DNA of 18,997 nt from a virus. The notes beneath the pieces were generated by a model. It made no database searches. It was not told where the DNA came from and saw nothing but the letters and a program-made list of their open reading frames with translations. The DNA lies in UHGV virus genome UHGV-0102822; one strand, written 5' to 3'. How positions within the stretch are numbered: the first letter of the stretch is position 1; every line of letters begins with the position of its first letter. Both the position numbers and the translations under genes were made by a program. Positions 50 through 15,346 of the stretch are shown here, in pieces.

Positions 50-1615
50 ATGAAATTTTTAGATTTTTTATTAAGACGTAAACCCGAAGTAAGTAAAATT
101 AAAAAGCGTCATAAACCAAAACTTATTATCGATAATGATACGGCTTTTGGTAATGAATTAAAGCGTCAACTTGGTCCAAGAACTGATCGTTTAGATGGTG
201 ACTTTGAGCAAAACCTGATTCGAACTGCAACAATTAATAACGAAATCCGAGCAAGTGCTGATAATATCAGGGCTATGTCCAGAACGATTAGCATTAATAC
301 TCCTTTGGGTAAACGTGCTGTGCAATATCAAGTTGATAACGTTATCGGTGAAGGAATAAACCCTCAACCTCGTTTGCTTGATTCAGAAGGAAAGCCTAAT
401 AAAGAACTGAATAGTTTAATTAGCGATAATTTCAATTATTGGTCGAATTCGGCAAGACGTTTCAGCAAAAATAAACGTATTAACTGGCGTCGTTTCCAAG
501 AAATCGTTGAACGCGCTCGTTTTATCGATGGTGAAGTTTTTATTCGTGTTCATGAAGGTGATGAATTTAAATTAGAAATTATCGAGGCTGCTCGTTGTAA
601 ATTCGGCGACAGACAACAAACCGATGATGGTTATATTCTTGATGGAATTGAATATGATAACGATGATTCTCCTATTCGTTACTGGTTCCAAGAGATTAAT
701 AAAACCACTCAGACGGAAGGTGGTAATTCTTACGGTGTTTCTGCTGATGAAATTATTCACTATTACAGAGAACTGTTTCCCGATCAACGCAGAGGAATTC
801 CAGAAGCTATCGCGAATATCGACACAATGAACCAATATAATCAGTTTGCTTTTGCGACTCTTGTCCAAAAGCGCGCTGCGGCAAGCTCTATGGGCTTTAT
901 TGTTCAAGACAAAGACGGTCAGGAATCTCTCGATTTAGGCATTGATGAAGATGAATCCGAAAATATAGAACAGCCTGAAATTATTCAAGAATTCGAAGCT
1001 GGTACGATTCATAAACTTCCTGCTGGTCATGATATTAAACAATTCAGTTCTACTCAAGGCGGTGATGATTTCTTGAGTTTTACGGATCGCTTGGAAGACC
1101 ATCTTGCAATGGGTTACGGCTTTTATAAGCAAGGATGGAAAGGTGACACCAGTAATATTAACTATTCTGCGGCTCGTTTCGGTGATCAAGCTCAGAGAGT
1201 AATGTTTAAATCTGTTCAACGAAATCTTAAAGAACAAGTTTTTGAGGTTATTTTTGAAAAATGGTTAGCATGGTCAATCATGAATGAAAAAATTAGTCTG
1301 AAAATGACTTCTATTCCTTCTGTTCTTAATCAGATTGTTTGGACATATCCAAAATGGGAATCTATCGACCCTATTAAAGATGCTCAGAAAGACCAAATTG
1401 ATGTTGATAACGGATTTAAATCTGCTTCCGACGTTATTATTTCTCGCGGTGAAGACCCAGAAATCGTATTTGCTCAGATTGAACAGGAAAAATCTCGTTA
1501 TATTCCTAAACATTCTCAGTCGATTGCGGTTGCTGCTGCACCTGCTGAATTAGCTGCTTATGCACAGGTAGAAGTTGCAGAAATTAATTCGGATAACTCT
1601 GGGAAGGACATCTAA
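50..1615 (+). CDS. phage portal protein (lambda gpB-like portal family)
   Basis: 521-aa ORF starting at ATG 50. The C-terminal half (FTDRLEDHLAMGYGFYKQGWKGDTSNINYSAARFGDQAQRV) resembles the conserved core of lambda-type portals as I recall it. It sits directly upstream of the prohead protease/capsid gene, the canonical position. Confidence 0.8.
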   Translation: MKFLDFLLRRKPEVSKIKKRHKPKLIIDNDTAFGNELKRQLGPRTDRLDGDFEQNLIRTATINNEIRASADNIRAMSRTISINTPLGKRAVQYQVDNVIGEGINPQPRLLDSEGKPNKELNSLISDNFNYWSNSARRFSKNKRINWRRFQEIVERARFIDGEVFIRVHEGDEFKLEIIEAARCKFGDRQQTDDGYILDGIEYDNDDSPIRYWFQEINKTTQTEGGNSYGVSADEIIHYYRELFPDQRRGIPEAIANIDTMNQYNQFAFATLVQKRAAASSMGFIVQDKDGQESLDLGIDEDESENIEQPEIIQEFEAGTIHKLPAGHDIKQFSSTQGGDDFLSFTDRLEDHLAMGYGFYKQGWKGDTSNINYSAARFGDQAQRVMFKSVQRNLKEQVFEVIFEKWLAWSIMNEKISLKMTSIPSVLNQIVWTYPKWESIDPIKDAQKDQIDVDNGFKSASDVIISRGEDPEIVFAQIEQEKSRYIPKHSQSIAVAAAPAELAAYAQVEVAEINSDNSGKDI

Positions 1616-1620
1616 ATAAA
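1612..1620 (+). promoter_or_regulatory. CTAAATAAA motif (candidate late-promoter element) overlapping the portal stop codon
   Basis: Exact CTAAATAA core, one of six intergenic or gene-end occurrences at + strand gene boundaries; resembles the T4 late promoter TATAAATA. Confidence 0.35.
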
Positions 1621-1634
1621 TCAGTAAAACAAAA

Positions 1635-1652
1635 GAGCGTCGAAAGACGCTC
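1635..1652 (+). promoter_or_regulatory. RNA hairpin with GAAA tetraloop between portal and protease/capsid genes, no U-tract
   Basis: GAGCGTC-GAAA-GACGCTC, a perfect 7-bp stem with a GNRA loop, followed by ATTCAAGAGGA (SD) and ATG 1669. Not a canonical intrinsic terminator; could be a processing or stability element. Confidence 0.45.
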
Positions 1653-1668
1653 ATTCAAGAGGACTAAA

Positions 1669-3606
1669 ATGCTCAAGTTAAAACGAGAATATACAGTCCA
1701 AGACGTTACTGAAACCGATGGCGTTTTTGAAATCGCATTCAGCTCTGAAACTCCTGTTGAGCGTCAGATTGAAGATGAATACGGACATCCAGTTACGGTT
1801 AATGAAATTCTTGTTCATGACGGTCCTCATAATGCAGACCTTACAAGAATTAATAACGGTGCTGCTTTGCTGTTTAATCACGATTTCGATAAACATCTCG
1901 GAAAAGTAATTCCTGGTTCTGTTCGAATTGATTCAGACCGTATCGGTCGCGCAAATGTCCAATTCAGTAAACATGGCTCTTTAGCCCAAGAAGTTTATGA
2001 AAAAGTCAAAGAAGGAACAATCAGCAAGATTTCTTTCGGATATGACTTGAATGAATATGAACTCAAGGGTCAAGACTTATTAGTTACGCTTTGGTCTCCA
2101 TATGAAATAAGTTTTGTAACTGTTCCTGCTGACGATTCCGTGGGGTTGGGAAGATTACTAAATACAAATAACAAAAGCGTTAAGAAATTACGCGAATTAA
2201 ATTTAACTAACAAAGGTACTCGAATGAAACGCATTGATGAAATGACGAAAGACGAACTGGTAGAAATGACCATTGACGAAATCGAAATGCTGTCCGAAGA
2301 AGATCGCGCGAAACGTGAAGAAATTCTGGAAGAAGTAAAAGTCGAAACTGAAAATTCTGGTGATTCTGCTGTTGTCGAAACTGACAATTCTCCTGCTGTT
2401 GTTCCTGCTGGTGATGAATTAACAGAAGAAGAACGCGAAGAAGAAACGGAAGAAATTCTTGAAATCGCACAGCGCTACAAAGTAGCACAAAAAGACGTTG
2501 CAAGCGCAATCGCTAAAGGCATGACCGCACGTCAATTTAAACGTTCTATTAAACCTAACAAAGCTCCGGCGGTAATTCGTAACATGACTAAAGATACTAA
2601 AGTAAATCTGGAAGATAAATTCGACCTTGGCGATGCTGTTCGCTCTATGATGAATGGTAAAGCTGTTCGTGGCGCTGCTGCTGAATATACACAAGAAATG
2701 ACTCGTAAGCGTCTACAACGTGGTCTTAGCGTTTCAACCGGTATCTATATGCCTGTAAATGCTATTGCTCAGAACTCACGCGCAATTAACACTGTTCCTA
2801 CTGTTTCTCCAATTCAGGAAACTGTTCAGCGTTATGATTCATTCGTTGAAATGCTATTGAAAGGTACTGTTGCTGATAAATTGGGTGTTAACTTCCTGAC
2901 TGGTTTGAAAACTCCGATTTCTGTACCAAAACAAACTAAATCTTCTGTTGAAGCATTCGGTTTCGTTGATGAAAACGGTGAATCTCCAGAAGGCGAAAGC
3001 GCATTCACCAACATTAAGTTTGAACCAAAAACATTTACTGGTGGTAACCCAATTTCTCGTCAAGCTCTGTTGACTCTGCCAAATCTGGGCGCTTTCATTT
3101 CTGACCACATTGTTAAGCACTCACGCGCTAAACTGGAAGGTCTGATGTTTGGTTCTCTGACTGATGCTAAAGCACCTGATTCAATCGTTGCTCAGTTGAC
3201 TGCACAGGCAATGGGAATGACCTACAAAGAGTTCATCGTTGAAGCTGCAAAAGCTAAAGGCAATGGCGTTGATATGGCTGCATTTAAATATCTGATGGCT
3301 GCTGCTCTTGAAGGTGATTTGAAAACCACTCTGCGTGATGCTGGTGTTTCTGGTTATATCATCGACGACATGAACAAAATCGGCGGACATGATGTTATCG
3401 GTTCTGGTCTGGTTAAAGATGGTCAGGTTATCTCTGGTGACTTCTCCGCTGTAACTGTAGCTGAATGGGAAGGTCTTGCTCTTGACCTAGACGACACAAC
3501 TTATCGTAACAAAGGCGCTATCGTTCCTCGCGTTTGGGCTGATATCGATTGGAAAGTTTGTGCTGACGATCGTCTGTTCCTGCACGAAAAAAAGACGGGA
3601 GCTTAA
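1669..3606 (+). CDS. prohead protease (HK97 gp4 / peptidase S78-like) fused to an acidic scaffold-like linker and an HK97-fold major capsid protein domain
   Basis: The N-terminal ~165 aa align by eye with HK97 gp4 protease, including the His (LFNHDFD) and Ser (ISKISFGYD) catalytic contexts and the ISFVTVPADD segment. The middle is an acidic helical stretch (EEEREEETEEILEIAQRY). The C-terminal ~370 aa have an HK97-type capsid character (GDFSAVTVAEWEGLALDLDD, DDRLFLHEKK tail). The gene is followed by a strong terminator, as expected for a highly expressed capsid gene. Confidence 0.75.
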   Translation: MLKLKREYTVQDVTETDGVFEIAFSSETPVERQIEDEYGHPVTVNEILVHDGPHNADLTRINNGAALLFNHDFDKHLGKVIPGSVRIDSDRIGRANVQFSKHGSLAQEVYEKVKEGTISKISFGYDLNEYELKGQDLLVTLWSPYEISFVTVPADDSVGLGRLLNTNNKSVKKLRELNLTNKGTRMKRIDEMTKDELVEMTIDEIEMLSEEDRAKREEILEEVKVETENSGDSAVVETDNSPAVVPAGDELTEEEREEETEEILEIAQRYKVAQKDVASAIAKGMTARQFKRSIKPNKAPAVIRNMTKDTKVNLEDKFDLGDAVRSMMNGKAVRGAAAEYTQEMTRKRLQRGLSVSTGIYMPVNAIAQNSRAINTVPTVSPIQETVQRYDSFVEMLLKGTVADKLGVNFLTGLKTPISVPKQTKSSVEAFGFVDENGESPEGESAFTNIKFEPKTFTGGNPISRQALLTLPNLGAFISDHIVKHSRAKLEGLMFGSLTDAKAPDSIVAQLTAQAMGMTYKEFIVEAAKAKGNGVDMAAFKYLMAAALEGDLKTTLRDAGVSGYIIDDMNKIGGHDVIGSGLVKDGQVISGDFSAVTVAEWEGLALDLDDTTYRNKGAIVPRVWADIDWKVCADDRLFLHEKKTGA

Positions 3607-3611
3607 CTGAT

Positions 3612-3634
3612 ACAGGAGCACAAGCTGCTCCTGT
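3612..3634 (+). promoter_or_regulatory. perfect 9-bp hairpin just after the capsid stop codon, no U-tract
   Basis: ACAGGAGCA-CAAGC-TGCTCCTGT. The stem sequesters an AGGAG; candidate RNase III or mRNA-stability element. Confidence 0.4.
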
Positions 3635-3671
3635 CAGAAAGCCACGCGCTCTTAAGGTAACAAAATAAATT

Positions 3672-3696
3672 AGGGACTCTTCGGAGTCCCTTTTTT
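3672..3696 (+). terminator. rho-independent terminator after the capsid gene
   Basis: GGGACTC-TTCG-GAGTCCC, a perfect 7-bp GC-rich stem with a UUCG tetraloop, followed by TTTTTT. Confidence 0.75.
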
Positions 3697-3706
3697 CGTT
3701 TTGGAA

Positions 3707-3716
3707 CTAAATAAAG
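3707..3716 (+). promoter_or_regulatory. CTAAATAAAG motif (candidate late promoter) with AAAAAGGAGA Shine-Dalgarno directly downstream
   Basis: Part of a 27-bp cassette, CTAAATAAAGAAAAAGGAGACAACATG, that is 24/27 identical to the one at 14626-14652. Confidence 0.45.
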
Positions 3717-3730
3717 AAAAAGGAGACAAC

Positions 3731-4033
3731 ATGCTTTTTCCATACACACAAAAACAAAAACAAGAATTCTTAAAACGATTTGGTCAAACGCTATTAATCG
3801 ATAATAAAGAAACTCTGGCTATTGTCGAAATTGAAATTACTAACGTTGATGGACAAGTATCAGAAACGTTTTATATAACAATTGATGAAGTAATAGCTCG
3901 CCAAGATCTCGAAGTTCATTACAAAGAAAACATCTACCGAATTGCTTATATCGTTAACGATGGTTCAGGACTTGTTAATGCTTATTTGTCTTTAATTGGT
4001 GATAACAGCGGAAGGACTAGCAAATATGAATAA
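3731..4033 (+). CDS. hypothetical virion protein, connector/head-completion candidate by position
   Basis: 100-aa ORF from ATG 3731, preceded by AAAAAGGAGA with 5-nt spacing. The track's 3701 start is a TTG lying inside the promoter/SD region. No recognisable motif; the role is inferred only from position after the capsid gene. Confidence 0.55.
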   Translation: MLFPYTQKQKQEFLKRFGQTLLIDNKETLAIVEIEITNVDGQVSETFYITIDEVIARQDLEVHYKENIYRIAYIVNDGSGLVNAYLSLIGDNSGRTSKYE

Positions 4034-4431: not shown

Positions 4432-5460
4432 ATGACAAATGATATTTTTGTGGCTAATCTCGTCCGTGTTTCTGTAAATGAAGAAGCAACGTCGGAGATT
4501 CCTAGCTACTTTGACCCAGGATATATTGAAACTGAAAATGTTGCTGCTTTTCCGGTAATAGGATTTTCAAATCAAGTTCAATCACTCGAAGATTATCGAG
4601 AAGATTTTGAAGTTAAATTATCAGGTGATCAAACAATTGATAACACTGTTTTAAGCATATTTGAATCTGATGATGAAGTTTCCGAATTGTTAGACAATGC
4701 GTTAATGAATAAGAAAAAACTTCGATTTAGAAATCTTTATGTTGTCGATTCAGAACATACAAGAGAAAGACAATCCGGTCTTTATCATATCTTTGATGCT
4801 TATGTTACGAAGAAAGAAACAAACGGGTCTGAGAGTTCCGCTGTAATTAACAACTATACTTTAAGTCCAGACGGTAAATTATTTTCAGGTTACGCTGAGT
4901 ATTCAACTCCGTTAAACGTTGGCGATTATGGTGTTGGTGCAGGAACAGAAGAAATCGAAGGTGTAAAAGATTTAGGTCTTTTGACTGGTAACAGATGGAT
5001 AACTGTTGATGGGGTTAACACTGATAATCCATATAACTCTGGCACGTCTGCTATGGCAATTCAGCATCCAAGTGGTCAAGGATGGGAACTGATTGGAGCA
5101 AGTATCGGTAATCCTAGCATACGTATTCGTAACAAGCAGATGAATCCCGACGGGACAATCAATGAATCGAATTGGGTTAAGGTCTATACAGAACTTGAAC
5201 GTCCTACAACAGAAGACATTGGAGCGCTTCCTATTACGGGAGGAACGTTACAAGGTTCACTGACGATTCAGGATTATTTGACTGTACGCAAAAAGATAAA
5301 CGCCCCGCTTGTTGAAATCGACAATCTAAATACTAAAGAAATTCAATCTGATTCGGTGAAAGTCAAAGGTCAAGAAGTTTATTCTCCTACGAATAAACCA
5401 ACTCCTGTTGATGTTAACGCAGTAGCTCAAGGTGAAACGTTAGACGCCGGAACATTCTAA
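4432..5460 (+). CDS. putative tail structural protein carrying a tail-fiber-type GGT-x-x-G-x-L motif in its C-terminal part
   Basis: 342 aa, with GTGAGGA SD before ATG 4432. The C-terminal region contains DIGALPITGGTLQGSLTIQDY, the motif class seen in phage tail fibers and also present in the 951-aa fiber downstream (SKAGDTMTGDLTV). Confidence 0.45.
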   Translation: MTNDIFVANLVRVSVNEEATSEIPSYFDPGYIETENVAAFPVIGFSNQVQSLEDYREDFEVKLSGDQTIDNTVLSIFESDDEVSELLDNALMNKKKLRFRNLYVVDSEHTRERQSGLYHIFDAYVTKKETNGSESSAVINNYTLSPDGKLFSGYAEYSTPLNVGDYGVGAGTEEIEGVKDLGLLTGNRWITVDGVNTDNPYNSGTSAMAIQHPSGQGWELIGASIGNPSIRIRNKQMNPDGTINESNWVKVYTELERPTTEDIGALPITGGTLQGSLTIQDYLTVRKKINAPLVEIDNLNTKEIQSDSVKVKGQEVYSPTNKPTPVDVNAVAQGETLDAGTF

Positions 5461-5473
5461 AAAATTTGATTAA

Positions 5474-5482
5474 TTAAATAAC
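5474..5482 (+). promoter_or_regulatory. TTAAATAAC, a weaker variant of the recurring TAAATAA motif upstream of the tail fiber gene
   Basis: Lies 31 nt upstream of ATG 5513 and is followed by the CAGGAGAA SD; one mismatch to the CTAAATAA core. Confidence 0.25.
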
Positions 5483-5512
5483 AAGGATGTTATTTTTCAA
5501 CAGGAGAATGAA

Positions 5513-8368
5513 ATGGCTAATAACAAAGTCAAACACTATAGGACTGATGTCGCAGGACGTAAACCTGATGCTTCAAAAATGCTTGAAGGTGAAATTGCTA
5601 TTAACATGACCGATAAAAGCATTTTCACGAAACGTGGAACTGAAATCGTTAATATCGGTAATGGTGCTGATTCTGTCGTCGAAGGTGGACAGACTTTTAT
5701 CGGTGACGTTCAAGCAAATAAATTAAAATCTGACACTGATATTTCTCTGAAAAATTCCGAGAAAAGTTCTATCGTTTTTGAAGATGAACACGGTAAAGCA
5801 AAAGTCGAATTGAAATCTGAAAAGCAAACTGATTCCGAAGGCTCTTTGAAAGTTGTTGTTTCGAACGGTAAAAACGCTTCAACAGGTTATTCAACTTATG
5901 ATTTCGTTAATGGTCGTTTACGTTTACCAGTTGCACCAATTGAAGCTGATAACGCAACGCGTAAAGACTATGTTGATTCAGAGATTAAGAAAGTCTCCGA
6001 CGCAACAGGAACGAATCTGACAGCTTTAGAGAATAAAGTTAACGCTAACGACACGAAACAGACCGAAGCGAACACCGAGCTGGACAATCGTCTTAACGCT
6101 AAGATTGATTTAAACAATACGACTATTAACACGAAAGTTGACGCTAACAAAGCCGACGCAGATTCAAAGATTAAAGCTGTTAATGATCGTTTGACTGTTG
6201 ATAATCAGACTTTGACCGACATGATTAATACCAAGGTTTCAAAAGCTGGTGACACAATGACTGGCGACTTGACTGTTCCTAAATTGAATGCCGACGGTAT
6301 CAAAGCAAATTATATTAACTTGGGTCCTAATCCTAATAGTTTAGGTGCTAACAGTATTATGATGGGAGATTCCGATACAGGATTTAAATGGAGAGAAGAC
6401 GGTTGGTTAGACACTTATTCCAATAATGTTGTTGTATCAAGTGTTGCAGGATCTCAAAACTTTTTTAATCGTCAAGTTACGATTAGATATAGAAGCGATG
6501 GTGCAGGAAACGTTAACGGTCTGGCACCTGCTGGCACATCTTTGCTTAAAATCGATACAACGACCGATGGAAACGGAATCGGAGACGGATACACTTATTT
6601 CGGATTATCAAATGCCGGTAAATATCATAACTATCTGAGAGGAACCGGTGCAACGTTCATCGATTCTCATGACGGTGTGAGAATAAGTGGTCAGACTCAT
6701 ACTCTTGCGGGAGTTGTGACTTCTGGTAAATCAGTAGGAACTTATGATACTTATTCCATGGTCAACTGGACTCAAGACACACAAGCTTTCAACCGTCTGA
6801 GACATTTCAGAGCGTGTGGTGCGTCGACCTGGTGGCATGAACTTGTATGGGCACATCATGATAATCCAAAATATTCGGATTCATTAACTTGGTGGCAGGG
6901 TATCGGGGCTGATAACTGGATTGCATCATTGCACCAAAGCGGTAATTATAAGACAAACCGATTCGAAGCACACGGCAGAAGTGCCGCTTATAAGCTTTTC
7001 AGTGCGACAAGTGAAGCTGCTTATATTTCTGGTAACAACGATGGAAAAGAAAACTCATGGCTGTTAGGTAAAACAGATGCCGGAACAAACATCATGTTTC
7101 AGAATAATATGGTTACGGGTCAAAGTTCCGCCGTAGTTCTGAGACAGAACCATGTGCAGCTTAACGCTAATGGTTATAATACCCTGACAGTTCTTGATAA
7201 CAGAATTGAAATCGACGGTTCAAGATGGGCAGCAACAAACAGTCACGCTTGGTCAGATCAGTGGAATCAATTGCCTCCTGTTCTGCTTAATTTCGGAACA
7301 TCTTCAGGTGCAAGTGATTATTATCCTGGATTTGCATTGCAGCAAACGACTTCCCAGGCGGGATATCATACTCGTTTTGAAATGGGAATAATTCGAGCCG
7401 GTGCACAGTACGGAAAAGGTGTAATACGTGTTTCTGAACCGAACCATGCTGCGATGGCCGGAAAAAATCAGTCCATTTATGAATTTGATATAAACGGAAG
7501 ATTCGCATCACCGAATATTGTTGATACTCCTAAAGTTGAAACCCGACAGATAACAAGTTTCGGTGTTAATACTCTTAACGTGCTAGGCGGAAACTCAATT
7601 GCGTTTGGTGATGGTGACACCGGTATTCGTCAAAGAACTGATGGAAACTTAGAAATTCTGGCAAATAGCGTTCATGTTGCAACATTCGACCACGCGGGAA
7701 TTAATTCATTAACCACTATGCGCGTTTCTTCTCCAAACGATTCTCGTGGCGTATATGTTCATAATATCAGAACAGGCAGCGCAAACGCATTAATTGCTGG
7801 TCAAGTTGATGGCTGGGCTGATTGGGGAGCATGGCGTGAACGTCCTGCTGGAATGATCGTAGAAGCGGGTTCAACTGATAAATGCATTAACATTTGGAAA
7901 TCTGTTCAGTGGGGAACCGAATGGTCTGCTGGAATGGACATTTATAATCCAGCAGGCGGCGCTTATGAAGCCATGCTTCATGTTAGAGGTGCAAACTTTA
8001 CATTTAGAAGCGTTGATGGTGCTGCCCATGCTGTTTCTTGGGTTTCAACTTCCGATAAACGTCTGAAATCAAATCTTGAAAAAATCGAAAACGCAGTTGA
8101 TAAGGTTAATACGTTAACTGGTTACGTTTACGATAAGAAATCAGATTTGAAAGAAACTGAATATTCGTTCGTAACTCGCGAAGCAGGTATTATTGCTCAA
8201 GAACTGAAAGAAGTATTACCAGAAGCTGTTAGTTCTTTCGGCGAAGATGAAATTCTTGGTGTTAACTCTGCTGCTGTAAACGCGTTGCTTGTTAATGCTA
8301 TCAAGGAATTAAGTGCTGATTTGAAAGAAACAAAAGCGCGTCTTGATGCTTTAGAACTTGCTAAATAA
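5513..8368 (+). CDS. tail fiber protein with C-terminal intramolecular chaperone / autoproteolysis domain (peptidase S74-like)
   Basis: 951 aa. The shaft region has P2 gpH / T-even-fiber-like motifs (KAGDTMTGDL; MMGDSDTGFKWREDGW and AFGDGDTGIRQRTDGN repeats). The C-terminal ~105 aa (SDKRLKSNLEKIENAVDKVNTLTGYVYDKK...GIIAQELKEVLPEAV...ALLVNAIKEL...LKETKARLDALE) match the signature of the self-cleaving chaperone domain known from endosialidase and T5 pb1-type fibers. Confidence 0.8.
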   Translation: MANNKVKHYRTDVAGRKPDASKMLEGEIAINMTDKSIFTKRGTEIVNIGNGADSVVEGGQTFIGDVQANKLKSDTDISLKNSEKSSIVFEDEHGKAKVELKSEKQTDSEGSLKVVVSNGKNASTGYSTYDFVNGRLRLPVAPIEADNATRKDYVDSEIKKVSDATGTNLTALENKVNANDTKQTEANTELDNRLNAKIDLNNTTINTKVDANKADADSKIKAVNDRLTVDNQTLTDMINTKVSKAGDTMTGDLTVPKLNADGIKANYINLGPNPNSLGANSIMMGDSDTGFKWREDGWLDTYSNNVVVSSVAGSQNFFNRQVTIRYRSDGAGNVNGLAPAGTSLLKIDTTTDGNGIGDGYTYFGLSNAGKYHNYLRGTGATFIDSHDGVRISGQTHTLAGVVTSGKSVGTYDTYSMVNWTQDTQAFNRLRHFRACGASTWWHELVWAHHDNPKYSDSLTWWQGIGADNWIASLHQSGNYKTNRFEAHGRSAAYKLFSATSEAAYISGNNDGKENSWLLGKTDAGTNIMFQNNMVTGQSSAVVLRQNHVQLNANGYNTLTVLDNRIEIDGSRWAATNSHAWSDQWNQLPPVLLNFGTSSGASDYYPGFALQQTTSQAGYHTRFEMGIIRAGAQYGKGVIRVSEPNHAAMAGKNQSIYEFDINGRFASPNIVDTPKVETRQITSFGVNTLNVLGGNSIAFGDGDTGIRQRTDGNLEILANSVHVATFDHAGINSLTTMRVSSPNDSRGVYVHNIRTGSANALIAGQVDGWADWGAWRERPAGMIVEAGSTDKCINIWKSVQWGTEWSAGMDIYNPAGGAYEAMLHVRGANFTFRSVDGAAHAVSWVSTSDKRLKSNLEKIENAVDKVNTLTGYVYDKKSDLKETEYSFVTREAGIIAQELKEVLPEAVSSFGEDEILGVNSAAVNALLVNAIKELSADLKETKARLDALELAK

Positions 8369-8371
8369 TAA

Positions 8372-8391
8372 AAAGGGACGAAAGTCCCTTT
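8372..8391 (+). terminator. hairpin terminator after the tail fiber gene (A-tract / stem / T-tract, possibly bidirectional)
   Basis: AAAGGGAC-GAAA-GTCCCTTT with a GNRA loop. The T-run is short (TTT then C), so termination is probably partial. Confidence 0.5.
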
Positions 8392-8394
8392 CAT

Positions 8395-8405
8395 CTAAAT
8401 AATAA
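8395..8405 (+). promoter_or_regulatory. CTAAATAATAA motif (candidate late promoter) upstream of the 162-aa gene
   Basis: Second copy of an 11-bp direct repeat (first copy 8361-8371, overlapping the fiber stop) flanking the terminator hairpin. Followed by a 14-bp palindrome and the AAGGAT SD. Confidence 0.35.
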
Positions 8406-8433
8406 CGTTATTACTTAATAAAGGATATTTAAA

Positions 8434-8922
8434 ATGGCTGATAAAGCATATGATATTTTCGCTGGCTCTTACGTCAGTGTATTTTTCAACTCTGACGTAT
8501 TGAACAAAGATATCGACTCAGAGAAATTCGTAGAAGTTCCTGAAGTTGGCGCATTTCCTACGACTGGTATCGAACGTGAGGTAATCGTTGCTCCTAACTT
8601 TACTCACAAATACAGCCGTAAACTGGTTGGTCGTGGTTCTGTTCCTGATATCGATTTGACTGTTAACTATATTCCTGGGTCTATTCATGATCAGCTTTAT
8701 AAGCTTGCGGAAGATGGTAAACGTGGTCAGTTCAAAATCGTTTATTGGATGGATGCTTCTAAAGAAATCGGTGTTGCAAAAATGTATAACGGTTTCCTGT
8801 CAAGCGCTACTTATTCCGGTGGTGAATCAGAAGTTGCTGCACAGGCTATGACTCTGAGTGTTGATGGTGGTCCAATTGCCGAAGCTTTGGTTGATTTGAC
8901 TGCTCCAACTCCAGAAGGCTAA
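8434..8922 (+). CDS. putative tail tube or minor tail protein
   Basis: 162 aa, acidic, with a pattern loosely reminiscent of tail-tube-fold proteins (DIDLTVNYIPGS...KRGQFKIVYW...GGESEV). Flanked by a terminator on each side, suggesting an abundantly expressed structural gene. Assignment is weak. Confidence 0.35.
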   Translation: MADKAYDIFAGSYVSVFFNSDVLNKDIDSEKFVEVPEVGAFPTTGIEREVIVAPNFTHKYSRKLVGRGSVPDIDLTVNYIPGSIHDQLYKLAEDGKRGQFKIVYWMDASKEIGVAKMYNGFLSSATYSGGESEVAAQAMTLSVDGGPIAEALVDLTAPTPEG

Positions 8923-8943
8923 TCGTTTTATTGTTCAATCTTA

Positions 8944-8969
8944 AAAGACTCCTAACGGGGTCTTTTTTT
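8944..8969 (+). terminator. rho-independent terminator after the 162-aa gene
   Basis: AAAGACTCC-TAAC-GGGGTCTTT, a 9-bp stem with one G-U pair, followed by a run of seven T (three of them in the stem). Confidence 0.7.
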
Positions 8970-8973
8970 GGCT

Positions 8974-8983
8974 CTAAATAAAG
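8974..8983 (+). promoter_or_regulatory. CTAAATAAAG motif (candidate late promoter) upstream of the gpK-like gene
   Basis: Exact CTAAATAAAG immediately after the terminator, then AGAGG SD and ATG 9002. Confidence 0.4.
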
Positions 8984-9001
8984 TCAGAGGTGAATCTTAA
9001 A

Positions 9002-9418
9002 ATGTTTAAATTTCAAGCTGACTTATCAAAATTATTAAATCGTTATATCAACAAAGAACACAAATACGGTCAAAACGACTGTAATATCCTTGTCGCTGAA
9101 TATATCGATATGACTTGCGGAACAGATTACGCAAGCAAACTTATTTCCAAATATGACTCTGTTCAATCGGGTTTAAAACACTGCAAAGAACTTACAGGTT
9201 TTAATAACGTTTTAGAAGCTTGTGAAAAGCATTTCGAAAAATCAAACATTATCGAAACAGGGTCAATTGTCTTAATTAAAAAAACATACAGACGCCGAGT
9301 TTATTACGTTGCGTCGATTGTCTTTAACGACAAAGCAATTATTGAACACAACAACAAATACGCTTTGATAAACGTAAAAGATTTTGAATACGAATTAATT
9401 TTTAACAGGAGAAAATAA
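9002..9418 (+). CDS. NlpC/P60-type tail assembly protein (lambda gpK C-terminal domain-like)
   Basis: 138 aa from ATG 9002; the track's GTG 8990 overlaps the SD. Cys-His-His spacing typical of NlpC/P60 (QNDCNILVAEY ... IIEHNNKYALI). Sits directly upstream of the gpJ-like gene, as gpK does in lambda. Confidence 0.55.
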   Translation: MFKFQADLSKLLNRYINKEHKYGQNDCNILVAEYIDMTCGTDYASKLISKYDSVQSGLKHCKELTGFNNVLEACEKHFEKSNIIETGSIVLIKKTYRRRVYYVASIVFNDKAIIEHNNKYALINVKDFEYELIFNRRK

Positions 9419-12400
9419 TGGCTATTGTCGCAATTGGTGCAATCATCGCTGGTGCTTCTGCTGGTCTTGCTGCTTATGCCGCTGGGATGGCATTAGCTAT
9501 TTCAATCGGTATTGGTGTTGCTGTTGCTGCTGTTTCCGCTTTAATGTCAACAGCTATGCAACCAACTGTTCCTCGATTTAATACAAGTGATACCGCAACA
9601 ACATTAGGAACAACGTCTGATCCTTCAACTGTATTACCGATTATCTACGGTGAACAACGCACAGGAACAATTAACGTTTGGGATGCTGTAGGAAATGATA
9701 CGACTTATTTGGTGCAAATTTTTGCAATTGCCGAAGGTGAAGTTGATAGCTTTAAAAACCTTTATATCGATAACAAGCGTATTCTGAATGATGCCGTTTA
9801 TCGTGATGGAATTGTTTCAAGAGGTTCAATCGTTTCTCAATATCAAGACTATGTGCAAGTTGAATTCTCTGTTGGTAAAGAACAAGGTCATCATTTCAAA
9901 CTTGCTGAACAATACTTAGGAAATGACCCAAGTGGCTGGCCTGTTTCTGCTACAGGTAACGGTGTCGCTTCTTGCTGTATCGTAATGCAGAAACGAAATT
10001 CAGACTTACAAAACCAAGCTGATATCCTACAACCTAACAGTCAGGTCGCTGTTGATGTTAGAGGACGTTTGATTACTGACTTAAACACGGGACAAATCGT
10101 TCCATCTCGCAACGGTGCAAGTCAGATTGTCGATTATCTGACGAACGAACGATACGGATTAGGAGTTTCACTTGATAAAATTAACCTTGATAGTTTTAAA
10201 GCTGCTGCAAATTATGCTTTAAGCAATCAACTATTTTCCGATGGTGCAACAGACCCTAACGCAACGTTTAAAGAAAACTTAACTCAGCTTGCAGGTGCTT
10301 TTAACGGAATGATTTTCGAATCATTCGGACAAGTTTATTGCAAAATCGATGGTCCTGATGTTGTTTCATTTGATTTCGATGAAGAAAATATTTCTGCTGG
10401 TTCAGTTTCGTTGAATTCAGGTGGTTCAGAGGAATATTACAATACGCTGAACGTGAAATATCAAGATCCTGCAATCGATTATTCCGAGCAAGTTCTTCGT
10501 TATCCATCTGACGTGACGACCGACAAAACAATTCAATATGATAAACGTATTATCGCGAAAGATGTTAATTATCGTTTTGTGAAATCTAAAGACCAATTGG
10601 ACAAACTTGCTTCAATCGAACGTAACAAATCACTGTTAAAACAGATTATCAGCTTTAGTTCTCCTGATTCCTATACTATTCAAGTTTGGGATGTTATCAG
10701 AGTTAACTTTGATGAATTAAATTTGCAAGATTCGTTATGGCGCGTTACTAACGTTAGTCGTTCAATGAATAAGGGCGTTGCTGGTATCGTTAACATCACA
10801 GCTACTGAATATATTGAAGAAGTTTATACCGATTTAGACTATGCGAAAGATCCTAATAACAACGGTTCAAACGTACCAAACAAAGGATACTTGATTGCTC
10901 CTACGAATCTTAAAGTTTCAAGCGTTTCAGAAACAGCTTTAGGAAGAACTTTTAAAGTTTCATGGAATTCAGAGCAAGATTTTAACCGTTCAGGTTTTTA
11001 TATTCAATATGCAGTTGCAGGAACAAACCAATGGACTCAAGCAGGATTCACATCAGGAAATTCTTACTTGATTATGAACATGGACCCATTGCAGAAATAT
11101 GATATTCGTGTTTGTGCTTCTGGTGTTTTCTATACGTCTGAATGGGTTTATTCAATGAATGTTAACCCTGATGTCGTTTATAATCTGCCTAAAGTTCGTG
11201 GTCTAAGACTTGTTAACTCTGAGTTTAATAACAACGTTACGCAACAAACGCAATTTGAATTTGCATGGGATAATCAGAGTTCAGAGAAATTCGAAGTTGA
11301 CGGCGTTCAACAGACTTTCGAACAAGTATTTCAGTATTACGAAATCAAAATCACTGGACAAAGACCTGTTGTATACAGAACTAAAGATTTGAGCTTCATT
11401 TATGATTTACGAATGAACCAGCAAAACGGTATCAGTCGTGAAATTAAATTTGAAATCACTGCTGTTGGTTATTCAGGTTTAAGATCTGAACCTACTGAAT
11501 TAATCGTAAGAAATAATCAAGCTCCTGCAATAATCGGTTTTACTGCTTCGAATGGTCCTGGATTATTGATGTGTTCTTGGAACGATCCAATGAGTGTTGC
11601 ACCTGATTATTCTGGAACTGTTATTCAAGTTTCAAATAATCCTGAATTCACTGACATTAATCAAGTTCAGTTGAGTTCTAGCCAGTTCATTGAAAACTTC
11701 CCGTTAGTTGACGGTGAATATTATGTTCGAGCTGCATGGTATGACGTTTTCGGACAAGACCAATTAGTTTGGACTGAATCAGTTTATATCAACATGAAAT
11801 GGGATATTCCATGGACAGAAGATATGAAAGACCAGTTAAACGACTTGCTTGATTTAGACCAACGAGTTGATGGTGCTATCGAGGACGCTTTAGAACTCGC
11901 AAATGCTTATACCGATACTCAGATAACATCAACTAAGCAGGAAGTAACAACCGAGATTGATCAGAAGATCAGCACGTCTAATACAACGTTGCATACTCAG
12001 ATAACGAATGAAACGCAAGGCGCTATCAATCAGGCTATTACGATTCAAACGGCTGATTTTGACGGTAAGTTAAACTCTGCTATAACCGAAGTTGAGAAAA
12101 CCCAAGCGGATGATCGTGCTGCAACAGCTTCACAAATCAGCCAATTAAAAGCTGAAACTACGGATATGGTCGCGACTGTTTCTACCGAAGCAAAAGCAAG
12201 CGTTGACGATTTAGCAGGAACTGTTAACAGTAAATGGGCTGTTTCTACAAACGCCGATGGTGTCGTAGCTGGTATTAGTATGTTGGCATCTAAGGACGCT
12301 GCGGGAAATAAAGCCTCAAGCATTATTTTTAACGCTGATAAGATTGCTATAACAAATAATAACACTGCTCCTAATGCTGTTCCACCGTTCATGGTCGCAG

Positions 12401-13098
12401 ATGATAGAGTTTATTTACAAAGCGCGATGATTCGCAATGCTTCGATCGGTAATGCTCAAATTGCTAATGCTGCAATTGATAATGCCAAAATTGCTAATGC
12501 TGCAATTAATAACGCGCAGATTCAAGACGGTGCTATTACAACAGCGAAAATTGGTAATGCTCAAATCGGTTCAGCACAAATTGCCTGGGAAATATCCTCT
12601 GATAACTGGGTTCCTTCCGGTGGTACTCAAGGATGGACAATTAGAAAAGATGGTTGGGCTTCATTCCAAAACGTTACAGTTAAAGGAAATATTCAAGCTG
12701 ATTCTGGTTATTTCTCAGGAGAAATCAGAGGTGGTTCTGGTTATTTCACAGGGACTGTTTACGCTGACAGAATCGAAGGTGACGTTATCAAAATGGGATT
12801 TGTCGATCCGTGGGGATCTGTTCATATTCCTGCTGTTGGTTGGAGAAGAATGATTGCTATTCCTAACGTTGCAATCGCCGGAAGAACTTATTCTGGTGGT
12901 ACTGGTTGGGGTGGTGGCAAAGCGTGGTTAAGACTCTCAAACGGCCAAGAAGTTGTTTACGTTCAATCTCAATCTCTAAACGGTTCAAACGGTGGTGTCG
13001 CATACATCGAAGCGGGACAAGCTGTTGATTTAACTTATACGGTCGAATTAAACCGAGCAGAAGCCTCAAGGGCAGTTTATTTTATCAGTAAAGTTTGA
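9418..13098 (+). CDS. central tail fiber / tip attachment protein (lambda gpJ-like) with a fused hydrophobic Gly/Ala-rich N-terminus
   Basis: 1226 aa. After a ~45-aa hydrophobic stretch comes a gpJ-type N-terminal domain (VLPIIYGEQRTGTINVWDAVGN...LVQIFAIAEGEVDSF), then fibronectin-III-like repeats (APTNLKVSSVSETALGRTFKVSWN...), a coiled region, a 5-residue-period repeat tract and a C-terminal domain. The start ATG overlaps the gpK-like stop (TAATG). Confidence 0.75.
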   Translation: MAIVAIGAIIAGASAGLAAYAAGMALAISIGIGVAVAAVSALMSTAMQPTVPRFNTSDTATTLGTTSDPSTVLPIIYGEQRTGTINVWDAVGNDTTYLVQIFAIAEGEVDSFKNLYIDNKRILNDAVYRDGIVSRGSIVSQYQDYVQVEFSVGKEQGHHFKLAEQYLGNDPSGWPVSATGNGVASCCIVMQKRNSDLQNQADILQPNSQVAVDVRGRLITDLNTGQIVPSRNGASQIVDYLTNERYGLGVSLDKINLDSFKAAANYALSNQLFSDGATDPNATFKENLTQLAGAFNGMIFESFGQVYCKIDGPDVVSFDFDEENISAGSVSLNSGGSEEYYNTLNVKYQDPAIDYSEQVLRYPSDVTTDKTIQYDKRIIAKDVNYRFVKSKDQLDKLASIERNKSLLKQIISFSSPDSYTIQVWDVIRVNFDELNLQDSLWRVTNVSRSMNKGVAGIVNITATEYIEEVYTDLDYAKDPNNNGSNVPNKGYLIAPTNLKVSSVSETALGRTFKVSWNSEQDFNRSGFYIQYAVAGTNQWTQAGFTSGNSYLIMNMDPLQKYDIRVCASGVFYTSEWVYSMNVNPDVVYNLPKVRGLRLVNSEFNNNVTQQTQFEFAWDNQSSEKFEVDGVQQTFEQVFQYYEIKITGQRPVVYRTKDLSFIYDLRMNQQNGISREIKFEITAVGYSGLRSEPTELIVRNNQAPAIIGFTASNGPGLLMCSWNDPMSVAPDYSGTVIQVSNNPEFTDINQVQLSSSQFIENFPLVDGEYYVRAAWYDVFGQDQLVWTESVYINMKWDIPWTEDMKDQLNDLLDLDQRVDGAIEDALELANAYTDTQITSTKQEVTTEIDQKISTSNTTLHTQITNETQGAINQAITIQTADFDGKLNSAITEVEKTQADDRAATASQISQLKAETTDMVATVSTEAKASVDDLAGTVNSKWAVSTNADGVVAGISMLASKDAAGNKASSIIFNADKIAITNNNTAPNAVPPFMVADDRVYLQSAMIRNASIGNAQIANAAIDNAKIANAAINNAQIQDGAITTAKIGNAQIGSAQIAWEISSDNWVPSGGTQGWTIRKDGWASFQNVTVKGNIQADSGYFSGEIRGGSGYFTGTVYADRIEGDVIKMGFVDPWGSVHIPAVGWRRMIAIPNVAIAGRTYSGGTGWGGGKAWLRLSNGQEVVYVQSQSLNGSNGGVAYIEAGQAVDLTYTVELNRAEASRAVYFISKV
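12430..12585 (+). repeat. tandem 15-bp / 5-residue periodic repeat tract inside the gpJ-like gene
   Basis: About nine consecutive pentapeptide units: IGNAQ IANAA IDNAK IANAA INNAQ IQDGA ITTAK IGNAQ IGSAQ. The underlying DNA repeats AATGCTCAAATTGCT / AATGCTGCAATTGAT. Confidence 0.7.
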
Positions 13099-13122
13099 TT
13101 TCTTTCCCCCAAATCCGTTTTT

Positions 13123-13132
13123 CTAAATAAGA
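13123..13132 (+). promoter_or_regulatory. CTAAATAAGA motif (candidate late promoter) upstream of the small-gene cluster
   Basis: Lies 28 nt upstream of ATG 13160; AAAGGAGAAAG SD in between. Confidence 0.35.
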
Positions 13133-13159
13133 CATGGAGGTCTTAAAAGGAGAAAGAAA

Positions 13160-13456
13160 ATGGGTGTTGAAGCCATCATTTCTTTCGCGGGACTGCTATG
13201 CGCTGGCTTTGGATGGATTTGGTCTCAAAAGAACGCAATGGAAGCCGACGCTTTAAAAATCGAACAGAGACTATCTGAAATCGAGAAAAGCGTTGCTCTT
13301 AATAGTGCGACCGATTCAAACGCAAATACTGAATTAACCAACGTTCGTGATTCGTTTAAGGAGTTTAAAGGTGATATGAAAAGTATAGACAATCGAATTA
13401 GAGAAATCGAAATTCGATTAGCGGTGATAGACAGTGAAACGAAAAGAAATAAATAA
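13160..13456 (+). CDS. small membrane-anchored coiled-coil protein (N-terminal TM helix plus helical domain)
   Basis: 98 aa. N-terminal hydrophobic segment AIISFAGLLCAGFGWIW, followed by heptad-like charged helical sequence (ALKIEQRLSEIEKS ... IDNRIREIEIRLAVID). The architecture resembles an i-spanin or other signal-anchored periplasmic protein, but function is unassigned. Confidence 0.5.
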   Translation: MGVEAIISFAGLLCAGFGWIWSQKNAMEADALKIEQRLSEIEKSVALNSATDSNANTELTNVRDSFKEFKGDMKSIDNRIREIEIRLAVIDSETKRNK

Positions 13457-13889
13457 TTACAAGAAAACCCTTTTTGATAAACAAAATAAAAGATGTGCTT
13501 TAACTGGGATAGAAATTACCGATGTTAATAAAGCCCATTTAGACCATGACCACGCTCTTGATGGTTCTCAAGCTGGACGATGCCGAGGATTATTACTCGC
13601 ACAGGCAAACGTCCTTGAGGGCAGATTAAAACATCAATTCATGTATTCAGGTTTAGCGAAGCACATCGAATATATTGATTTTTTAAAAAGATTGGTAACT
13701 TATCTCGAAAAAGATAATTCTAAAAATCCTATTCATCCTCAACTTGTAACAGACCTATCAAAGCGCTTTTCGAAAATGACGTTAAAGCAAATGAAAGAGA
13801 CTTTATTAGCAGAGGACATAAATCCAGTTGGTGATAAAAAATCTCTCATTAACTTGTACAAACAAAATTTAAAGGTGAAGTATGATTGA
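13434..13889 (+). CDS. recombination endonuclease VII homolog (T4 gp49-like, His-Me/HNH-type junction resolvase)
   Basis: 151 aa from GTG 13434, overlapping the upstream ORF by 23 nt. Clear similarity to T4 endonuclease VII as I recall it: HLDHDH, AG-x-x-RGLL, N...LEG..KH.F, SGL, and LVTYLEKDNSKNPIHPQLV versus T4 LLTYLKSDYTQNNIHPNFV. Confidence 0.8.
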   Translation: MKRKEINNYKKTLFDKQNKRCALTGIEITDVNKAHLDHDHALDGSQAGRCRGLLLAQANVLEGRLKHQFMYSGLAKHIEYIDFLKRLVTYLEKDNSKNPIHPQLVTDLSKRFSKMTLKQMKETLLAEDINPVGDKKSLINLYKQNLKVKYD

Positions 13890-14094
13890 AAAAATGAAAG
13901 CTGCATTCAAGAAACTTCCAGCAATGACAGGGGACTTTAAAAAGAAATTCATTTACGCGATGATTGCAATGGCTGTTTATAATTACATCGTTGTTCCGTG
14001 TGCATTGAGTTTCTTCGGAATAGTTCTTCCTATCGTTCCTCTTGATGAAGCTATGAAATATATCTTTGCAATTGTTTCATTTGGGAGTATGTAA
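13882..14094 (+). CDS. small hydrophobic membrane protein (holin-like size, possible dual start)
   Basis: 70 aa. N-terminus MIEKMK has two in-frame ATGs (13882 and 13894) separated by a Lys-containing tripeptide. A ~30-residue hydrophobic core (FIYAMIAMAVYNYIVVPCALSFFGIVLPIV) and a short hydrophobic C-terminus. Start overlaps the endo VII stop; AAAGGTGA SD. Confidence 0.45.
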   Translation: MIEKMKAAFKKLPAMTGDFKKKFIYAMIAMAVYNYIVVPCALSFFGIVLPIVPLDEAMKYIFAIVSFGSM

Positions 14095-14633
14095 TGGCGA
14101 AACTTGGTGGAGTTAAAAAAGACTTAGACAAATGGCGAATAAAAGAATCTGATCAGTTCTCTAAAAGAGTAACTAAAGCGTCTAAACTCGCTTCTGTTGA
14201 GTTACAACGAAAGATTAATCGACGTGTTGAAGGACCTGTGAATTTCACCAAGAACGCCGTTGGGTTCAGATTTAAGATTGATAAAGAAGGAACAACTAAC
14301 AGAATCTTTATCAAAGACGTTCAGGCGAATTATCTTTCACACTTGATAGATGATAACAGTCCGATTAACAAATATGTTCCAACAGGGGTAAGAGGTTCGA
14401 CTAACCAGTTCGGTAACATTCCAGGATTAAAAACTCGTAGAAACCTAGAGGCAGTCAAACAAAAGAAAGATGGTATTAACAGAACGATTCTGATTAAGAC
14501 AAATGTTAAAAAACAGAACAAAAGAGTTATTGCTATTTTCAAACGTCATCAAACTCGTAAGAAATCTATTGGTTCTTGGACTGATATTGGTAATGACATC
14601 ATAAAAACGGTTCGTCGTGTTGCTACTAAATAA
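14094..14633 (+). CDS. hypothetical highly basic protein
   Basis: 179 aa, Lys/Arg-rich throughout. ATG overlaps the upstream stop (TAATG); GGGAG SD. No recognisable catalytic motif. Confidence 0.5.
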   Translation: MAKLGGVKKDLDKWRIKESDQFSKRVTKASKLASVELQRKINRRVEGPVNFTKNAVGFRFKIDKEGTTNRIFIKDVQANYLSHLIDDNSPINKYVPTGVRGSTNQFGNIPGLKTRRNLEAVKQKKDGINRTILIKTNVKKQNKRVIAIFKRHQTRKKSIGSWTDIGNDIIKTVRRVATK

Positions 14634-14636
14634 AAG
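14626..14636 (+). promoter_or_regulatory. CTAAATAAAAG motif (candidate late promoter) plus AAAAGGAGA Shine-Dalgarno
   Basis: Part of CTAAATAAAAGAAAAGGAGACAAAATG, 24/27 identical to the cassette at 3707-3733. Overlaps the stop codon of the preceding gene. Confidence 0.45.
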
Positions 14637-14649
14637 AAAAGGAGACAAA

Positions 14650-14970
14650 ATGAACTTAAATGATTTTGAAACATATCGTGTTGACGAACTCGATTCTATT
14701 TTTATCAAAGAGCACAATCCAGAGTCGATGACTATTCCTTATAGCTTTGAACTGGTGAAAGAAACTCGTATAAAAAGGAATCTTCAAAACGACCAAAACG
14801 TTTTTATTGTTAGCACTCAGAAAAAGAAACCTCGTTATCATTTCAAGAATAATGAAATCGTAGAAATCAATGGTCCTTTCTTTGAACAAAATGCTGTTTG
14901 TATTTTTCAGCAAGAATATATTCATAAAGGATTCAGAATGATTGGATATTTCTTCCAATTCATCGAGTAA
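14650..14970 (+). CDS. hypothetical protein
   Basis: 106 aa from ATG 14650; the track's 14617 start is a GTG inside the promoter/SD cassette. Followed by a strong terminator. Confidence 0.5.
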   Translation: MNLNDFETYRVDELDSIFIKEHNPESMTIPYSFELVKETRIKRNLQNDQNVFIVSTQKKKPRYHFKNNEIVEINGPFFEQNAVCIFQQEYIHKGFRMIGYFFQFIE

Positions 14971-14973
14971 TCA

Positions 14974-15005
14974 AAAGGAGTTATCTTCGTGATAGCTCCT
15001 TTTTC
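14974..15005 (+). terminator. rho-independent terminator
   Basis: AAAGGAGTTATC-TTCGT-GATAGCTCCTTT, a 12-bp stem with one G-U pair, followed by a T-run. Confidence 0.65.
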
Positions 15006-15007
15006 GG

Positions 15008-15018
15008 CATAAATAAAG
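15008..15018 (+). promoter_or_regulatory. CATAAATAAAG motif (candidate late promoter) upstream of the chaperone / tape measure operon
   Basis: Variant of the recurring motif, immediately after the terminator and 31 nt before ATG 15050. Confidence 0.35.
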
Positions 15019-15049
15019 TAAACATTTAAATTAACTATAGGATTAAGAA

Positions 15050-15346
15050 ATGAAATTCGAAGAAATGATCGCCGCTCTCGGAGCAAAACGAGAAGTTGTA
15101 GAAATCAAAGGTTTTAAATTTTATGTTCGCGCAATGACCGTTGAAGAATTTGGTAAATTCTTTTTTATGGAAGACCAGACCGATAATATGATTCTGAAAT
15201 GCATTGAGAACGAAGACGGATCCCCTGTTTTTGAAAATATCGAACAAGTCAAACAACTTTATACCACCGTTCGCGCTCAACTTTCTGCTGCTGTTTCTGC
15301 TGCTTCTGTTATGAAAGAAGAAACTCACGCTGTGGAAAAGAATTAA
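15050..15346 (+). CDS. tail assembly chaperone (lambda gpG-like) by position and frame relationship
   Basis: 98-aa acidic ORF directly upstream of the tape measure gene. The downstream ORF is open in the -1 frame across its 3' end (from 15235). Confidence 0.5.
   Translation: MKFEEMIAALGAKREVVEIKGFKFYVRAMTVEEFGKFFFMEDQTDNMILKCIENEDGSPVFENIEQVKQLYTTVRAQLSAAVSAASVMKEETHAVEKN

Follow-up and report, generated by a model that had tools for sequence, protein, structure and literature searches.

Candidate nested translation starts within the fused prohead protease–major capsid protein gene of a rare Escherichia coli prophage

Introduction

Phage Mu carries nested protease and scaffold genes (I/Z), in which one frame serves two products. 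Nested protease and scaffold genes are also found in phage lambda (C/Nu3), the herpesvirus HSV-1 (UL26/UL26.5) and HFTV1 (gp17/gp17.5), where the truncated product is abundant and the C-terminal part common to both products targets the protease into the procapsid (bioRxiv 10.64898/2026.09.13.751334). Here we describe candidate nested starts in a gene of a different make-up, a single open reading frame (ORF) for a prohead protease, a scaffold-like segment and a major capsid protein at positions 1669–3606 of the virus genome UHGV-0102822 (18,997 nucleotides (nt) in all, hereafter the window).

Like the C/Nu3-type genes, this gene has an in-frame start past the protease domain, and the truncated product would share its C-terminus with the protease form. 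In those systems, however, the nested product is a free scaffold, terminated by a stop codon ahead of the capsid gene, whereas here the frame continues into the capsid protein; both forms would be capsid subunits, and there are possibly two nested starts. The initial annotation of the sequence drew the analogy with C/Nu3, and it holds for the in-frame internal ribosome binding site (RBS) and start past the protease. It does not extend to the nature of the nested product, which would not be a free scaffold, as no stop precedes the capsid domain.

HK97 (gp4 and gp5) and T5 (pb11 and pb8) have the same protease family and capsid fold as the window gene and likewise no separate scaffold gene. In these phages an N-terminal helical propeptide acts as the scaffold and is removed by the protease; in the window protein, predicted helices spanning residues 194–368 precede the capsid fold at 391–645. 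HK97 differs in that gp4 and gp5 are separate genes, whereas the window protease lies in the same frame as the capsid protein with no stop between them. The HK97 protease is encapsidated non-covalently, through its own C-terminal tail.

The fusion of protease and capsid protein is already a well-known family and no peculiarity of the window. Its members (PHROG 617 and 4523, the Rhodobacter RcC-cluster, R4C gp6, VP882, phiHAP-1 and ECO1230-10) have the same single ORF directly after the portal gene, with the S78 protease first, an acidic part of variable sequence next and the HK97-fold capsid domain last. In R4C, as predicted here, the mature capsid protein comprises no more than the C-terminal ~270 residues. 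Actinophage genome announcements routinely use the name "major capsid and protease fusion protein" (SEA-PHAGES). Published fusions are treated as one product in the searchable papers, whereas we propose nested starts for the window gene. The searchable literature describes no internal start for protease–capsid fusions, although the likeliest place, PMC3709472, was outside reach, so an earlier description is possible. With both the fusion and C/Nu3-type nesting already known, what would be new here is nested starts within a protease–capsid fusion. Codon usage and comparison with relatives suggest that ATG 2224 is probably used as a start, giving the more abundant product.

Results

Of the lines of evidence for the proposed nested start, codon adaptation is the strongest and the one that depends least on the others. 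We calculated the codon adaptation index (CAI) from the E. coli relative adaptiveness values (Sharp and Li 1987). The index is 0.24 for residues 1–185, 0.57 for residues 186–305 and 0.56 for residues 379–645, compared with 0.32 for the portal gene, 0.18–0.34 for the tail genes and 0.51 for the major tail protein gene, the sole other high-copy structural gene in the window. Over 40 codons at a time, CAI rises from 0.14–0.21 (sliding segments within 131–200) to 0.60–0.65 (sliding segments within 181–230). Because an AT-rich genome would favour Glu and Lys codons anyway, these were excluded, which gave 0.20, 0.45 and 0.50 for residues 1–185, 186–305 and 306–645 and placed the best single change point at residue 195, within a plateau that spans 180–201. 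Optimal and poor codons stand at 57:55, 40:12 and 181:35 in the same three segments. By Fisher tests the first segment differs from the second (p = 0.002) and from the third (p = 7e-10), and the second and third do not differ significantly (p = 0.31).

The step is found in all 19 distinct members of the clade to which the window gene belongs (segment medians 0.23, 0.46 and 0.55), and in 13 of them the change point falls within ~10 codons of the Met186-type ATG, the counterpart of ATG 2224. A control based on codon-choice log-odds, in which the major tail gene of the window was set against the low-copy genes of the window, gave -0.33 ± 0.06, -0.07 ± 0.05 and +0.075 ± 0.03 for the three segments, with other low-copy genes at -0.20 to -0.43. 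GC content at third codon positions (GC3) is nearly flat along the segments (0.276, 0.292 and 0.315), which argues against a compositional mosaic. A second, smaller rise occurs at residue 306, seen in the clade medians (0.46 to 0.55) and in the control (-0.07 to +0.075); in the window alone it is not significant. Since the step follows whichever RBS is present across clades (see below) and not a fixed domain border, it appears to report translation flux.

The start codon itself is conserved within a variable linker. A Met lies within 3 residues of the Met186 position in all 37 homologues of 50–100% identity, and the ~25 residues between the conserved VPADDxVGLGR motif and Met186 differ among homologues in length and sequence. 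As first annotated, ATG 2224 is in frame and AAAGGT at 2212–2217 precedes it by a 6-nt spacer (ACTCGA, 2218–2223). We compared the DNA of 17 distinct clade contexts, drawn from viral and metagenome scans and 11 contigs (a scan of genome contigs alone gave only 5 loci) and excluding L117, which has no Met at this position. An AAGGA-type Shine–Dalgarno (SD) sequence lies 7–11 nt upstream of the Met186-type ATG in 14 of them, with anti-SD duplex energies of -5.4 to -6.2 kcal/mol, values of -5.4 kcal/mol being reached by only 4.7% of in-frame positions in clade genes. In a fifteenth context (L127) the motif is correctly spaced to a second ATG two codons further downstream, and the remaining two, including the window, have AAAGGT at -3.9 kcal/mol. 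The AAGGA motif is encoded variously as Lys-Gly (AAA-GGA), Lys-Glu (AAG-GAA), Glu-Gly (GAA-GGA), Glu-Glu (GAG-GAA) and Arg-Lys (AGG-AAA); since it spans differing residues and codon phases, it is the nucleotides and not the peptide that are kept. Real gene starts in the window range from -4.0 to -8.7 kcal/mol, and gene 13882 of the window has the same AAAGGT hexamer. The 60 nt centred on ATG 2224 have a folding energy of -3.0 kcal/mol, where the ORF averages -8.7, and rank among the weakest 3% of such stretches, and mRNA structure is weak at the Met186- and Met306-type ATGs of most relatives too. The conserved ATG, the retained AAGGA, the codon step and the weak mRNA structure all point to a nested start at 2224, as had been proposed.

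A second conserved candidate, ATG 2584 (Met306), had been overlooked in the initial annotation, which named 2224 only; family-wide, 2584 is the more widespread of the two. The Met306 codon is ATG in 25 of 26 clade sequences. All relatives keep GG at -13/-12 from this ATG, the first G being a wobble base that is invariant across seven residues (Ala GCG, Thr ACG, Met ATG, Lys AAG, Ser TCG, Val GTG and Gln CAG). Synonymous resampling of the SD-like motif gave P <= 0.01 in most clade members, and Escherichia phage DCP80 has AAGGAA in place of the GGCGGT of the window. The 60-nt fold at ATG 2584 has an energy of -3.7 kcal/mol, within the least structured 6% of the ORF.

In more distant clades, an ATG lies 9–22 residues before a conserved FSL..IRS motif, with AAGGA 6–12 nt upstream of it. 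The Lys of a K[D/E] pair at this Met306-type site is AAG in 22 of 22 distinct contexts, against AAA in 45 of 46 neighbouring Lys codons and a gene-wide AAG use of 20–25%. An E. coli prophage clade of ~40% identity (L014–L020, L092–L103) has codon adaptation values of 0.27, 0.30 and 0.64, the step occurring only at the downstream AAGGA and ATG ("KMEKTFDL") and not at its Met186-type ATG, which is preceded by GGAGG with an 11-nt spacer. The acidic helical middle part would in that clade be present only on the rare protease-bearing form. Clades of 30–37% identity likewise show the step at the Met306-type AAGGA and ATG, and the Met306-equivalent site is the predicted main internal start of the distant clades.

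Upstream of Met306 lies a helical module (residues 253–294, 2425–2550; EEILEIAQRYKV...MTARQFKRSIK) that can be recognised in every clade, down to 25% identity. It would be present only on the protease-bearing chain in clades whose abundant product starts at the Met306-type site, and its counterpart in HK97 may be the capsid-targeting tail of gp4.

Internal sites were also surveyed across the family, in 32 representatives below 70% identity. Between the domains, in-frame ATGs with an SD show a 3.6-fold enrichment (35 sites among 4753 codons vs. 31 among 15149, p = 3e-7), and at least one such site is present in 25 representatives. The sites form two clusters, one 24–52 residues past the proline of the protease VPAD motif (Pro153 in the window) and the other just before the propeptide motif. 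In the 629-amino-acid (aa) fused gene of roseophage R4C, GGAGG and a 5-nt spacer precede an ATG at Met189, 16 residues past the protease GYGR (-9.5 kcal/mol). Judged by these motifs, nesting occurs in much of the family without being universal.

Two further in-frame ATGs of the window were rejected as internal starts. At Met493 (ATG 3145, -6.1 kcal/mol) and Met536 (ATG 3274, -3.3 kcal/mol; clade mean -4.4) the SD-likeness is that expected from the conserved peptide (resampling P 0.3–1.0), and the motif at Met493 stands just 3 nt before its ATG. Nor is there support for an internal promoter like that of HSV UL26.5: positions 1400–3800 hold no sigma-70-like site against 4.1 expected, in a scan that covers no phage-specific late promoters.

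Pfam, AlphaFold2 (AF2) and Foldseek agree that the single frame encodes a protease, an acidic helical linker and an HK97-fold capsid domain, as originally read (Table 1). Pfam matches are to Peptidase_S78 (PF04586, the caudovirus prohead serine protease) at residues 65–156 (E 1e-11) and to Phage_capsid (PF05065) at residues 401–632 (E 4e-7). All 118 distinct family sequences collected keep His71 and Ser122, which we take to be the catalytic pair of S78 proteases, by comparison with HK97 gp4. The AF2 model of the 645-aa protein, built from 30 homologues (mean predicted local distance difference test (pLDDT) score 72.6), consists of a beta-rich protease (1–150), a disordered stretch (152–186, pLDDT <50), helices (194–229), a disordered acidic stretch (229–250), helices (253–294), a disordered stretch (296–307), helices (311–368), another disordered stretch (369–390) and a compact domain (391–645). 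Residues 1–185 are thus made up of the fold at 1–150, the conserved VPADDxVGLGR at 152–162 and a variable disordered linker at 163–185. ATG 2224 does follow the protease core, but its placement "exactly" at the end of the protease domain is accurate only to within ~25–35 residues, the extent of the linker at 152–186. For the compact domain, Foldseek returned the R4C capsid (8gta; E 2e-16, target TM-score 0.72) and HK97 gp5 (target TM-score 0.71–0.75), and the capsid part also matches PDB 8gta in sequence (E 1.6e-18).

The R4C structure bears on maturation. The 8gta capsid chain comprises residues 362–629 of the 629-aa gene product, and because it begins at an internal Gly (Gly362) and not at Met, the mature R4C protein is cut from a precursor. 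The R4C structure paper makes no mention of a protease or of cleavage. Since the R4C mature start aligns to ~Val379 of the window protein, within the disordered stretch predicted at 369–390, we infer a cleavage near residue 379. By homology, this structure supports the proteolytic release of a mature capsid protein that had been suggested for the window gene.

The profile PHROG 617 ("major head protein", 626 positions) matches residues 3–630 with E 1e-80, and PHROG 4523 carries the name "major head and protease protein". A large protein database holds 2096 homologues at E <= 1e-10, among them an identical E. coli protein that NCBI names "HK97 family phage prohead protease", and both Pfam domains are present in 119 of 120 listed homologues. 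By tblastn, one-ORF homologues annotated as major capsid protein occur in many phages, from DCP80 at 62% identity to MQ-4, ECOO78, VP882, phiHAP-1, FoX1, RcCronus, R4C, S-CBS1 and others at 24–32%. The identical protein in NCBI E. coli records and the abundance of one-ORF homologues bear out the reading of the frame as genuine and not the result of a sequencing error. Against phage records, a megablast search yielded no more than a 188-bp match to the window. The window is a rare E. coli prophage, with matches in 7 of 5426 complete genomes; the best of them, of 85.6% identity, adjoins ldtB.

The closest phage record (L001; PQ671644.1, Escherichia phage DCP80, 1–19780) belongs to a 141-kb genome classed as Straboviridae/Tevenvirinae. 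Its left end carries a lambdoid/HK97-type terminase–portal–protease–capsid module, all annotated "hypothetical protein", and the record may be a chimeric assembly or a misclassification.

The portal gene (50–1615; PHROG 21, E 6e-63) lies directly upstream of the fusion gene, an order shared by relatives, and the + strand has no further ORF between the two genes or within the fusion gene. Two relatives, L124 (779–991) and L130 (790–990), have between the portal and protease–capsid genes a small ORF with a Pfam GP57 match (T4 gp57-type chaperone family), which is absent from the window. A 7-bp GC-rich stem-loop at 1635–1652, with no T-run on the + strand, follows the stop codon of the portal gene and precedes the fusion gene's RBS. 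Together with the hairpin downstream of the ORF (Table 1) it flanks the capsid gene, and mRNA stability or partial termination might be set there.

The order of the tail genes in the window (4432–18077) is unusual. Long tail fibre genes resembling T4 gp36/gp37 (4432–8368) separate the head genes from the major tail protein gene (8434–8922), the tape measure gene (15732–18077) is downstream of a J-like tip protein gene (9418–13098), and an ORF with an endonuclease domain (13434–13889) lies within the tail module.

Table 1. Positions of the fused gene, its segments and its candidate start signals in the window
Feature	Positions	Strand	Remarks
Protease–scaffold–major capsid protein fusion ORF	1669–3606	+	645 codons and stop, without internal stop
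SD AAGAGGA of the full-length 645-aa product	1657–1663	+	5-nt spacer; duplex energy -5.8 kcal/mol
Residues 1–185: S78/HK97-type prohead serine protease domain and linker	1669–2223	+	Pfam, AF2; low codon adaptation
His71 codon CAC, putative catalytic histidine	1879–1881	+	invariant in the family
Ser122 codon TCT, putative catalytic serine	2032–2034	+	invariant in the family
SD-like AAAGGT, 6 nt 5′ of ATG 2224	2212–2217	+	-3.9 kcal/mol
Candidate nested start 1, Met186, 460-aa scaffold–capsid product	2224–2226	+	conserved ATG, codon step, weak mRNA structure
Residues 186–305: acidic helical scaffold-like segment	2224–2583	+	helices 194–229 and 253–294; high codon adaptation
SD-like GGCGGT, 10 nt 5′ of ATG 2584	2568–2573	+	-6.3 kcal/mol
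Candidate nested start 2, Met306, 340-aa capsid precursor	2584–2586	+	
Residues 306–378: helical propeptide (short delta-like domain), whose removal at maturation is predicted	2584–2802	+	helices 311–368
Residues ~379–645: predicted mature HK97-fold major capsid protein	2803–3603	+	8gta match, Foldseek
Terminator-like hairpin with T-run, 3′ of the fusion ORF	3672–3691	+	

Discussion

We consider it likely that ATG 2224 is a used start from which the more abundant product of the fused gene is made, and several observations weigh against this. Within its clade the window has the weakest SD at 2224, and in anti-SD duplex energy this site is outscored by two further in-frame ATGs, 2584 and 3145. 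Resampling of synonymous codons gives P = 0.82 for the window at this site and 0.08–0.25 per sequence for its relatives. The SD upstream of the full-length product is not weaker than that at 2224, so RBS strength alone cannot explain a large excess of the short form. The ~40% identity clade has a GGAGG and ATG without a codon step, and a conserved SD and ATG are therefore insufficient proof of heavy use. As 7 of the 32 representatives have no interdomain ATG with an SD, the fusion can apparently work without a nested start. The clade sequences are related, not independent, which inflates pooled p-values. As for the codon weights, the control derived from the window alone gives the same pattern as the E. 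coli values. The ATG and SD of the window sequence by themselves are weak evidence for initiation, which the relatives and codon usage lift well above chance.

Some of these points would suit a gene from which only the 645-aa polyprotein is made, with protease and capsid protein at 1:1, self-cleavage after assembly and internal ATGs that are ordinary Met codons. Gene callers and the NCBI Prokaryotic Genome Annotation Pipeline (PGAP) annotate a single coding sequence, and both the representatives that lack an interdomain site and the weak, non-significant SD at 2224 fit such a gene. We nevertheless regard it as quite unlikely, as it leaves unexplained the twofold rise that codon adaptation shows at residue 186 in every one of the 19 clade members, the shift of this step to another SD and ATG in other clades, the AAGGA kept across peptide contexts, the 22 of 22 AAG codons at the Met306-type site and the minimum of mRNA structure. 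A different origin of the step, in which the protease module came from another genome and the SD-like motifs are by-products of linkers rich in Lys, Glu and Gly, seems to us very improbable. Phage genomes are mosaic, such linkers do yield purine-rich DNA, and the resampling P at Met186 is only 0.08–0.25 per sequence. Against this stand the small differences in GC3 along the ORF, the resemblance of the protease segment to the window's own low-copy genes and of the remainder to its major tail gene, the position of the step, which varies by clade and coincides each time with an SD and ATG, and the choice of AAG for Lys in 22 of 22 SD positions vs. AAA in 45 of 46 neighbours. Moreover, the fusion is old, as homologues of as little as 25% identity share it, and codon usage should therefore have reached equilibrium since.

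The remaining question concerns which internal ATG predominates. If initiation were mainly at ATG 2584 and that at 2224 minor, the abundant product would be the 340-aa precursor and the acidic helical part would occur only on the rare protease form. The Met306-type site is the most widely conserved in the family, its SD-like GG is kept across seven residues (resampling P <= 0.01), its SD energy in the window is the better one (-6.3 vs. -3.9 kcal/mol), and codon adaptation shows its second, smaller rise at 306. However, the change point in the window lies at 180–201 with no significant difference between residues 186–305 and 306–645 (p = 0.31), 13 of 19 clade members change within ~10 codons of the Met186-type ATG, and GGCGGT is a non-canonical motif 10 nt from its ATG. 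A predominance of 2584 in this phage is for these reasons unlikely. Its use alongside 2224 is another matter; we rate the chance that ATG 2584 also serves as a start here slightly below even.

With ATG 2224 as the principal internal start, the gene would most likely work as follows. Initiation at 1669 would yield a minor 645-aa protease–scaffold–capsid chain, and because this chain is itself a capsid subunit and co-assembles, the procapsid would receive the protease with it. From ATG 2224 would come an abundant 460-aa scaffold–capsid chain, a precursor like HK97 gp5 with a long N-terminal scaffolding domain, and ATG 2584 may contribute a capsid precursor of 340 aa. Once assembly is complete, the tethered protease (His71/Ser122) would trim all forms upstream of ~residue 379 to leave a mature capsid protein of ~267 aa. 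In this scheme we infer initiation at 2224 and 2584, the ratio of the products, their co-assembly and the position of cleavage.

The Met306-type SD and ATG look like a retained capsid-gene start. The gene may have arisen through the loss of a stop codon between genes like HK97 gp4 and gp5, with the RBS of the capsid gene kept as the Met306-type site and a Nu3-like start of the Met186 type added. More tentatively, the large family could consist of three-tier nested genes that supply protease-tethered, scaffold-bearing and plain capsid subunits in ratios set by three RBSs. The Met306-type start would be the original capsid start and the Met186-type start the Nu3-like one, and clades would shift the dominant internal start and, with it, the scaffold dose.

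Fused protease–capsid genes are common (>2000 homologues) and pose a puzzle of stoichiometry, as a procapsid normally needs hundreds of capsid subunits and far fewer proteases. Conserved internal starts, if true, would solve it. They would also mean that gene callers miss the main product of fused protease–capsid genes, for which an SD, an ATG and a step in codon bias would together provide a sequence rule for finding hidden starts. The principle known from lambda C/Nu3 and herpesvirus UL26/UL26.5 would, if this is true, extend to genes in which the nested product is the capsid protein itself.

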